A program made the position numbers and the translations under genes. Below the pieces are notes generated by a model. That model made no database searches and was not told the origin of the DNA. It was given only the letters and a program-made list of their open reading frames with translations. A stretch of 64,000 nt of DNA from positions 1-64,000 of the forward strand of contig JABLTJ010000006.1 of the NCBI GenBank assembly GCA_013166775.1. The letters are read 5' to 3'. Below, piece after piece: positions 56,697 through 58,219 of the stretch; the first letter of the stretch is position 1, and each line of letters starts with the position of its first letter. Source of the DNA: Promethearchaeati archaeon (lineage in GTDB: Archaea; Asgardarchaeota; Heimdallarchaeia; Heimdallarchaeales; Heimdallarchaeaceae).

Positions 56697-57134
56697 GTGT
56701 CAGAAACTAGTAATTTTGAATACGAAATTAAATTGGTTAAAAAGGACAATTATAAATTCGAAGTTGATTTTGGTGATGCAATACCTAAACTCTTGATGGA
56801 TGAATCAACTGATGTTCCTGGAGGAGAAGGAAAAGGGCCCACAGCTTCCTTTCTACTAGCGACAGCAGTTGGAAATTGCTTATCAGCTTCATTCACATTT
56901 TGCTTGTCGAAAAAAAAGGTTGCTTTGGTTAGTCTGAAAACAAAAGTTCGATTTAAGCGAGAAAGAAATGAACAAGGTTTTTGGAGAATATCAAAGATAG
57001 ATGTTGATTTATTCCCAGAAGTGGAAAATGAAAATGATAAGAACTTTGAAAGGTGCGTAGAGATTTTCAAGAATTACTGTATTGTCTCAATGAGCGTCGA
57101 ACAAGGAATAGATATAGAAGTTACTGTAAAATGA
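56697..57134 (+). CDS. OsmC family protein
   Basis: DE...GG.G.GP, GNCL and YCIVS..V (two conserved Cys). Confidence 0.88.
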   Translation: MSETSNFEYEIKLVKKDNYKFEVDFGDAIPKLLMDESTDVPGGEGKGPTASFLLATAVGNCLSASFTFCLSKKKVALVSLKTKVRFKRERNEQGFWRISKIDVDLFPEVENENDKNFERCVEIFKNYCIVSMSVEQGIDIEVTVK

Positions 57135-57148
57135 GCTATACTAGATTG

Positions 57149-57215
57149 TGAGAGTCTCAGACTGCATTCTTTCGCAATATTTAGCGACGTAGTGCATGGT
57201 CATCATCAACTCTCA
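57149..57215 (-). ncRNA. Box C/D guide sRNA
   Basis: Minus strand reads TGAGAGTT-G-ATGATGA(C)-CCATGCACTACGTCG-CTAA(D')-ATA-TTGCGA(C')-AAGAATGCAGT-CTGA(D)-GACTCTCA: 8-bp terminal stem, canonical K-turn geometry, 67 nt, intergenic. Confidence 0.8.
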
Positions 57216-57361
57216 TATGAAGAATAAAGAAATAACTAATATGCGTTTTGATTAAACATCAAACGCAGTCTAGAAAGATTTTCTTCAGATTCTCGAAGAT
57301 ATTTTATTTACAATGCAAAAGACATATATAATAATACAGAAGTAATACGCCTAGTGTATAG

Positions 57362-58219
57362 GTGATTAAAATTCCACCAAAGAAAAATGAAACGAGATCA
57401 TCAAATGTTTATACTATTAACATTCCATCGAATTTCAAGGATGGCGTTTTAGAGCATTCAAGGAAGTTTGGTGGTGCAAGTCAATTAATTACTATGTCTC
57501 TAGGAGATTTGGCATCTAGAATACACGGGATTCAAAATAAATTAGATATAATGCAGGAATTAAGGGATTATATCAAGTTGGAAATTCTTTTAATGCAAAG
57601 GTATGAAGAAGAATCAAAAGTAAAAAAGGATACAAAATTATCTTTTCGAATAAAAGATCAAATAAGCCATGAATGCTTAACTGCGATAAGGAAGAAAACT
57701 GGTTGGTCTACATCAAAATCTGTGAGAATTTCTCTCCTTTGGTACTTATATGCAAATTTTGATGAACTGGTATCATCAGACAGTTATGTTCCTTTATTAA
57801 CCTGTCCTAATTGTGATTTTAGAACTCATGATCAAAGAGCTTTAGGAGTTCATGCTCAAACTATTCATGCATCTACACAAACTTATGAGACTACCGTAAC
57901 ACCTTCTCAGACAACAATAGATCAATTTACTACTGAAGCAATTTCAGATATAGAACTAGATGAATCAAAATTGCTTCAAGAGCTCGGTCTAAAAGACCTA
58001 GGGACTCTACAACCAACCGAATTGGAACCTGAAACTATTTCTCTAGTTCCTGATACAATAGTAGATGTTACTGATAAAAGTGATTTGAAGGAAATAATCG
58101 AAGAAAGAATAAAAGAAAGAAGATCGAAAAAAGATAAAGATGAGAAGATAGATGAGTTGCAATCTGAGATTTCTGATATTCTTGAATCTTTGAGAGAAGA
58201 TGGGTTAATAGATGATTGA
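57362..58219 (+). CDS. Putative DNA-binding protein: RHH-like domains + C2H2 zinc finger + acidic tail
   Basis: LSFRI...RKKTGWSTSKSVRISL (RHH-like); CPNCDFRT.....LGVHAQTIH (C2H2). Confidence 0.65.
   Translation: MIKIPPKKNETRSSNVYTINIPSNFKDGVLEHSRKFGGASQLITMSLGDLASRIHGIQNKLDIMQELRDYIKLEILLMQRYEEESKVKKDTKLSFRIKDQISHECLTAIRKKTGWSTSKSVRISLLWYLYANFDELVSSDSYVPLLTCPNCDFRTHDQRALGVHAQTIHASTQTYETTVTPSQTTIDQFTTEAISDIELDESKLLQELGLKDLGTLQPTELEPETISLVPDTIVDVTDKSDLKEIIEERIKERRSKKDKDEKIDELQSEISDILESLREDGLIDD

Follow-up and report, generated by a model that had tools for sequence, protein, structure and literature searches.

A candidate box C/D sRNA gene family of Heimdallarchaeia with a predicted guide against helix 34 of 16S rRNA

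Between two plus-strand open reading frames (56697-57134 and 57362-58219) of the window, the whole 64-kb stretch of DNA that we analysed, lies a previously unannotated element of 67 nt (57215-57149) that carries the features of a box C/D sRNA gene. It is encoded on the minus strand, a detail missing from the earlier note, and no open reading frame of at least 40 amino acids overlaps it. The first flanking frame codes for an OsmC-like protein (Pfam OsmC, E = 4.7e-14) and is a convergent neighbour, context rather than part of the RNA; the second is of unknown family. Read 5' to 3', the element is composed of UGAGAGUU (57208-57215), the 5' strand of a terminal stem that pairs with 57149-57156; a bulged G and box C AUGAUGA, an exact match to RUGAUGA (57200-57207, with box C at 57206-57200); a D' guide spacer of 12 nt, CCAUGCACUACG (57188-57199); a degenerate D' slot, UCGC (57184-57187), placed by alignment to relatives; UAAAUAUU, the internal part between UCGC and GCGA; a degenerate C' slot, AUUGCGA (57172-57178), likewise aligned to the C' of relatives and including that GCGA; a D guide spacer of 11 nt, AAGAAUGCAGU (57161-57171); box D CUGA (57157-57160); and GACUCUCA (57149-57156), the 3' strand of the stem, leaving 15 nt between its end and the stop codon of the OsmC-like gene. 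Box C is therefore found near the 5' end and box D near the 3' end. The C and D boxes, the 8-bp stem and the 3-nt bulge that the earlier note had described all lie exactly at 57149-57215, and the degenerate C' that it had reported is borne out as well.

The terminal stem has 8 bp, seven of them Watson-Crick and one U-G, and is followed by a 3-nt bulge, G-A-U, that precedes tandem G.A pairs in which the GA of box C stands opposite the GA of box D. A stem, a 3-nt bulge and two facing GA dinucleotides form the standard layout of the C/D kink-turn, a geometry that the element matches at the level of sequence and fold, so that the kink-turn is a predicted one. The minimum free energy fold (-21.4 kcal/mol, z = -3.65) keeps the terminal stem and adds an inner 4-bp helix between UCGC and GCGA (57172-57175). 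Both spacers of the element (57149-57215, minus strand) have the palindrome UGCA in common, so that in this fold the two guides are also partly paired with each other, which is probably incidental.

Upstream of the stem lies a promoter-like element, CAAAACGCATATTA (57237-57250, minus strand), BRE/TATA-like in composition, whose 3' end precedes the first stem base by 21 nt. Homologues of the genera g1 and g2 carry the motif CAAAAnn(C/A)ATATTA, ending 20-21 nt upstream of the stem, with unconserved sequence between motif and stem, and other genera have TTTAAA- or TTTAATA-like boxes at a similar distance. From its sequence and spacing, the motif would suit an archaeal promoter of BRE/TATA type from which transcription would begin at the stem. 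On the other side, the sRNA is found 10-30 nt past the stop codon of the OsmC-like gene, on the opposite strand, at all seven related Heimdallarchaeota loci (7/7) fetched through the OsmC-like protein. The genome also codes for the proteins with which such an RNA would be expected to work: Nop5 (PF01798, E = 2.5e-66) adjoins fibrillarin (PF01269, E = 1.4e-94) on contig C94, and there are two genes of the L7Ae family (PF01248) on contigs C1/C51.

Taken alone, the boxes and the stem are not significant genome-wide, since the exact motif (RUGAUGA...CUGA with a flanking stem of at least 7 bp) occurs twice in the 3.85-Mb genome against about 1.0 times per shuffled genome; for the 64-kb window the expectation is about 0.02. 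Most of the other strict motif matches in the genome look like coding sequence and were rejected. The chance that a 12-nt spacer contains a perfect 11-nt complement to about 7.4 kb of rRNA and tRNA is low (p ~0.004, by arithmetic: 2 x 7400 / 4^11). The decisive evidence is comparative, with guide-target co-evolution as its strongest part, and it is conservation together with this covariation that places the element far beyond chance.

Searching relatives with BLAST yielded the homologues, 17 of which were used to build a covariance model. With this model, 25 of the 30 genomes of family f1 have exactly one copy each, those without a match being 76-90% complete, and there are also weaker matches that carry the same guide. 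Relatives fetched through the OsmC-like protein belong to Candidatus Heimdallarchaeota, in agreement with the idea of the earlier note that the organism is an Asgard archaeon. The homologues show little or no change in box C, CAUGCACUAC and box D, the latter two being invariant within family f1, and the variants of box C (AUGAAGA, AUGACGA and GUGAUGA) are all compatible with a K-turn. The internal loop and the second spacer are variable, and their insertions and deletions do not come in multiples of three. The terminal stem covaries: across 16 distinct homologues 95% of its cells are paired, against 27-62% in slid controls, and four of its eight pairs show two-sided changes, a number reached by none of 500 shuffles. 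In more distant genera, boxes and guide are enclosed by stems that are entirely different and again complementary (GGUAC/GUACC, GAUGGGUU/AACCCAUC, GGGGCU/AGCCCC, CACGAG/CUCGUG and ACCC/GGGU). In genus g4, where box C reads AGGAUUG and box D reads AUGA, the pair G6-C1 is replaced by U6-A1, a compensatory change; the two copies of this genus (L056 in G030, 1503-1566, and L057 in G027, 1506-1569) have guide and register unchanged.

These data bear on another explanation of the locus, namely that it is no RNA gene at all: it might be a conserved inverted repeat that terminates or regulates the convergent OsmC-like gene, or the motif might have arisen by chance. The constant position shortly past the OsmC stop codon would agree with it, as would the rate of about one box and stem motif per shuffled genome. 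We nevertheless consider it very improbable, because the element is conserved in the manner of a guide RNA (invariant in the boxes and in one spacer, free in the other, with indels not in threes), the invariant spacer follows changes of the 16S rRNA in four lineages, and the genera g8, g11 and g13 keep the guide with other stems. In addition, no terminator-like hairpin was scored by a sigma-70/terminator scan, which is uninformative for an archaeon. On this sequence-based evidence, 57149-57215 can be regarded as a real box C/D sRNA gene and as a member of a gene family of the Heimdallarchaeia.

The D' guide finds its match in the 16S rRNA of the same genome (contig C52, 1513 nt), on the 5' strand of helix 34, where the earlier note had expected it. 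Positions 989-999 of this 16S read GUAGUGCAUGG and not the usual GUGGUGCAUGG, so the pairing involves no wobble: the guide CCAUGCACUAC (57189-57199) is a perfect 11-nt Watson-Crick complement. The complementarity proposed by the earlier note therefore stands, without the G-U pair that it had included, and the extension of the pairing through box C by wobble that it had envisaged is unsupported. Likewise, its proviso that the idea would fall if the 16S of the host lacked complementarity to the guide does not apply. The pairing exceeds the 9 nt required at least of a guide against a stable RNA and includes N5, the fifth base upstream of the D' slot, a C at 57192. Following the D+5 rule, whose application had been suggested, this base pairs with G992, the G immediately 5' of UGCAUGG, at about E. 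coli position 1051. G992 is the predicted target because in relatives the canonical D' CUGA sits directly after the 12-nt spacer. No other locus was found with boxes beside an antisense match to 16S 989-999.

Where D' is placed determines the nucleotide predicted to be modified. The earlier note had read D' as CUAA, and these letters do exist at 57181-57184, 3 nt on the 3' side of the homologous slot, which reads UCGC and directly follows the 12-nt spacer. Were CUAA the true D' of a methylation guide, the target would be G989, three positions 5' of G992. CUAA is nearer to the CUGA consensus than UCGC, and the duplex would span N2-N15 with a single G.G mismatch at N4. A 15-nt spacer with a mismatch beside the target would be atypical, however, all relatives have D' directly after the 12-nt spacer, and CUAA exists only in this genome (G000) and in G006. 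To judge from the alignment, CUAA is probably misplaced as a D' box, and we hold the shifted target to be quite unlikely. We thus retain G992 as the predicted target.

The strongest argument for this guide comes from its co-evolution with the target. All 16S sequences of family f1 read GGUAG-UGCAUGG and their guides read CAUGCACUAC. Genus g11 has GGUGG-UGCAUGG with the guide CAUGCACCACC / ACAUGCACCACC, genus g13 has GGUGU-UGCAUGG with CAUGCAACAC, and genus g8 has GCUGG-UGCAUGG with CAUGCACCAG / ACAUGCACCAG. Each of the four 16S helix 34 variants (GGUAG, GGUGG, GGUGU and GCUGG before UGCAUGG) is matched exactly by the guide of the same lineage, and even in g13, where the target position is a U, the guide base is an A. 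In all 14 genomes in which both the sRNA and the helix 34 stretch of the 16S could be read by script (14/14), spacer and 16S are perfectly complementary over 10 or 11 nt that include N2-N11. A fifteenth genome, G021, whose 16S contig begins inside the motif, was left unscored, and the visible part also fits. A 16S pattern search on ten entries gave nothing, and an Rfam SSU search recovered the 16S for two of five genomes. The earlier note had proposed to look for covariation in related genomes: it is found both in the stem, through the double changes in four of eight pairs, and in the guide, which tracks the 16S in four lineages.

Some observations on other RNA genes of this genome were made along the way. 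The 16S (L001, 99-1611, minus strand) and the 23S (L002, 4985-8366, plus strand) lie about 3.4 kb apart on contig C52 and, being divergently oriented, cannot form one operon transcript. Near its 3' end (~1445-1490), the 16S has an additional hairpin, AT-rich and about 30 nt long (AAAAAUUCUAGAAGAUCUUCUAGUUUUU), directly upstream of the helix 45 sequence GGGGAACCUGCGG. A hairpin at this place is not known from other archaea, and it may represent an expansion segment or a small insert resembling an intron. On contig C35 (47450-47542, minus strand), ARAGORN predicts a 93-nt tRNA with anticodon CUA ('tRNA-Pyl'), which could be a pyrrolysine or suppressor tRNA, or a misread intron-containing tRNA.

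The second guide of the element presents a different picture. The earlier note had named no target for it, and none was found: the D spacer AAGAAUGCAGU has no match with at most one mismatch over N2-N11 in the 16S, the 23S and 32 tRNAs of this genome, and nothing convincing on the rRNA contig. Of the checks against the organism's own 16S, 23S and tRNAs that had been advised, the D' guide therefore returns its 16S match and the D guide nothing. In the whole genome, the D spacer has 24 perfect 10-mer matches, one of which is the sRNA gene itself; these are uninformative because the word is so short and the genome AT-rich. The variable D guides of relatives gave no rRNA matches either, with the rRNAs of the present genome as proxy for some of them. 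The element looks like a single-guide RNA, because its D spacer has no rRNA or tRNA match and differs among relatives. The D guide is probably non-functional or directed at a target other than rRNA, so that the element would in effect have one guide and a degenerate C'/D' motif.

This internal motif varies strongly within the gene family. In relatives, the D' slot always lies directly after the 12-nt spacer and reads canonical CUGA in genera g5, g8, g11 and g13, UUGA, UUAA or UCAA in g1 and g2, and UCGC in the present genome. The C' slot is canonical (AUGAUGA or UGAUGAU) in g8 and g3 and reads AAUGCGA or AAGGCAA in g1 and g2. Taken together, C'/D' is canonical or near-canonical in the homologues of g3, g5, g8, g11 and g13, and the tandem GA needed for a K-loop is absent in g1 and g2. 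The present genome has no internal C'/D' K-loop (UCGC / AUUGCGA), and its two slots can form a plain 4-bp helix instead. In classical archaeal systems, the C'/D' motif is needed for D'-guided methylation; eukaryotic C/D snoRNAs likewise lack an internal C'/D' K-loop and methylate with degenerate D' boxes. Because the G.A pairs of a K-loop are missing from C'/D' in this genome, activity or the exact position of the ruler could differ here.

It might thus be asked whether the RNA, although a real C/D sRNA pairing with helix 34, acts only as an antisense chaperone in 16S folding and directs no methylation, in keeping with the degenerate D' of g1. We find this unlikely. All lineages have a Watson-Crick pair at N5, the N2-N11 register of 10 bp is exactly that of methylating archaeal RNPs and is the same in relatives with canonical D' CUGA, and eukaryotic snoRNAs are generally known to methylate despite degenerate D' boxes. 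What the chaperone has in its favour is the decay of the motif (D' reading UCGC here and UUAA, UCAA or UUGA in congeners, and C' without tandem GA), as well as the fact that conserved guide-target pairings without methylation have been discussed for Pyrobaculum and yeast (PMC6009581).

The methylation guide, by comparison, is the reading that we consider likely: an independently transcribed C/D sRNA gene of about 67 nt, predicted to guide 2'-O-methylation of 16S G992. Its anatomy, its conservation, the co-evolution of guide and target, the covariation of the stem and the presence of the protein genes are direct observations, from which we infer transcription, RNP assembly, methyl transfer and the exact position of the latter. 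Together with the 3-nt bulge and the terminal stem, box C (AUGAUGA) and box D (CUGA) would fold into a kink-turn to which L7Ae would bind, after which Nop5 and fibrillarin would assemble. The 12-nt spacer 3' of box C would then pair through N2-N11/N12 with 16S 989-999, GUAGUGCAUGG, on the 5' strand of helix 34, and fibrillarin would 2'-O-methylate G992, which pairs with guide base N5, counted upstream from the D' slot.

The family seems to be at home in the class Heimdallarchaeia. Among 399 Asgard genomes, a stringent pattern (box C, one base, CAUGCA, five bases, YUGA) was matched 15 times, and the reversed pattern, run as control, never; the real sRNAs among the 15 all fall within the class of the element, in families f1, f3, f4 and f7. 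Homologues with the canonical archaeal layout (12-nt spacer followed by D' CUGA) occur in families f3, f4 and f7 of this same class. Matches in other Asgard classes look like coding sequence and were rejected. With a phylum-wide pattern (RTGATGA N1-6 CATGCANNAC), the Loki-like genera g53 and g54 also gave matches (such as CCAUGCARAAC), which were rejected because the 16S of these genera reads GGAGGUGCAUGG and the loci have neither D box nor stem. With a class-wide pattern (TGANGA N1-6 CATGCACC), most matches were discarded as the antisense strand of 16S or as coding sequence variable at third positions, and only those in G035, G037 and G044 are sRNAs. Families f5 and f6 and the other Asgard classes gave no member of the sRNA family with these patterns, which are restrictive, so that the result means 'not found' and not 'absent'. 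A copy in family f7 (L161 in G077, bases 12-60), 26 nt from a contig end, consists of AUGAAGA, a 12-nt guide CCAUGCACUACU, CUGA, a short stem partner and a T-rich run; it is possibly a half-size version from which the second half of the RNA is missing.

The element resembles known archaeal box C/D sRNAs, such as the sR RNAs of Pyrococcus and Sulfolobus in their L7Ae-Nop5-fibrillarin RNPs. Like them, it has a K-turn made of box C and box D, a 12-nt spacer, a duplex of 10-11 bp over N2-N11 that obeys the N5 rule, a size within the common range of about 55-80 nt, an rRNA target in a functional region and the partner genes in the genome. It differs from them in its long 8-bp terminal stem, in the internal K-loop, which in its genus is degenerate or replaced by a short Watson-Crick helix, and in having an rRNA target for one guide only, most archaeal sRNAs being dual guides (PMC7994747). 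Reviews of archaeal C/D sRNAs cover only non-Asgard groups (PMC7994747, PMC4644070). In seven non-Asgard archaea, the 16S hot spots are listed as helices 3, 18 and 27, with helix 34 unlisted (PMC7994747); the supplement of Dennis et al. (2015) places several guides of Crenarchaeota and Methanopyrus somewhere within E. coli 1020-1120. Rfam at gathering thresholds gives no match at the locus. In E-value mode (57100-57270), the only families returned are C/D-box ones, all below threshold, that coincide with the element in strand and extent, the best being snoR26 (17.6 bits) and sR11 (17 bits).

Helix 34 is also a site of modification in eukaryotes, as the earlier note had stated in naming its yeast and human guides. 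The SNORD33 clan (Rfam CL00054) comprises yeast snR40 (Gm1271), human U32/SNORD32A (Gm1328) and Arabidopsis snoR21, and the snR55/U33 guides of eukaryotes are directed at a U two positions upstream of the snR40/U32 site. The D' guide of yeast snR40 directs the formation of Gm1271, snR55 serves Um1269, and the helix that holds Gm1271 also contains ac4C1280 (PMC4344503; PMC5464676); yeast Gm1271 corresponds to human Gm1328 (PMC3511168). We mapped the sites by aligning 16S 1042-1054 of the present genome (AACGAGCGAGACC) with a yeast primer site ending at 1336 (PMC5464676). In this mapping, which assumes no indel within the conserved 50-nt stretch, G992 equals yeast 1271 and U990 equals yeast 1269, the sole register that fits both base identities. 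The predicted target of the element is therefore, by positional mapping, the G 5' of UGCAUGG that is targeted by the SNORD33 clan, namely Gm1271 of yeast (snR40) and Gm1328 of human (U32).

The resemblance extends to architecture. Like snR40, the element uses the guide upstream of D' and, like the clan as a whole, it has a single functional guide, a degenerate C'/D' and a terminal stem. It is much shorter, however, and it is a stand-alone gene with a promoter-like motif of its own, rather than an intronic one. No sequence or profile similarity to the clan is detectable: a sensitive Rfam scan of 57100-57270 with the clan models RF00133, RF01201 and RF00472 gave no match at E <= 10. Hoeppner and Poole (PMC3511168) saw in general no significant similarity between LECA snoRNAs and archaeal sRNAs, and they report sR12 as essentially the one archaeal counterpart of such snoRNAs. 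The suggestion of the earlier note that this is an Asgard counterpart of those snoRNAs thus holds in the sense of positional and functional equivalence only, functional equivalence to snR40/U32 being plausible. That the helix 34 sRNA family of Heimdallarchaeia and the eukaryotic SNORD32/33-snR40/55 clan descend from one guide that methylated the same nucleotide before eukaryogenesis seems doubtful to us.

If true, such shared descent would make this one of the very few snoRNA lineages traceable across the boundary between archaea and eukaryotes, and it would mean that a eukaryote-like architecture, with the single functional guide, decaying C'/D' and long terminal stem of this genus, arose within Asgard archaea. 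The literature searched yielded no catalogue of Asgard C/D sRNAs and no methylation data for Asgard rRNA, and the sRNA family described here can seed covariance-model searches and genome annotation. The RNA itself is of an ordinary kind and yet an informative member of it, with a predicted target that is positionally equivalent to a eukaryote-wide modification. The series of its C'/D' motifs, from canonical in g5, g8, g11 and g13 to degenerate in g1 and g2, bears on the origin of single-guide C/D RNAs of the eukaryotic style, and the family makes it possible to ask, on a concrete example, whether individual sites guided by snoRNAs are older than eukaryotes.
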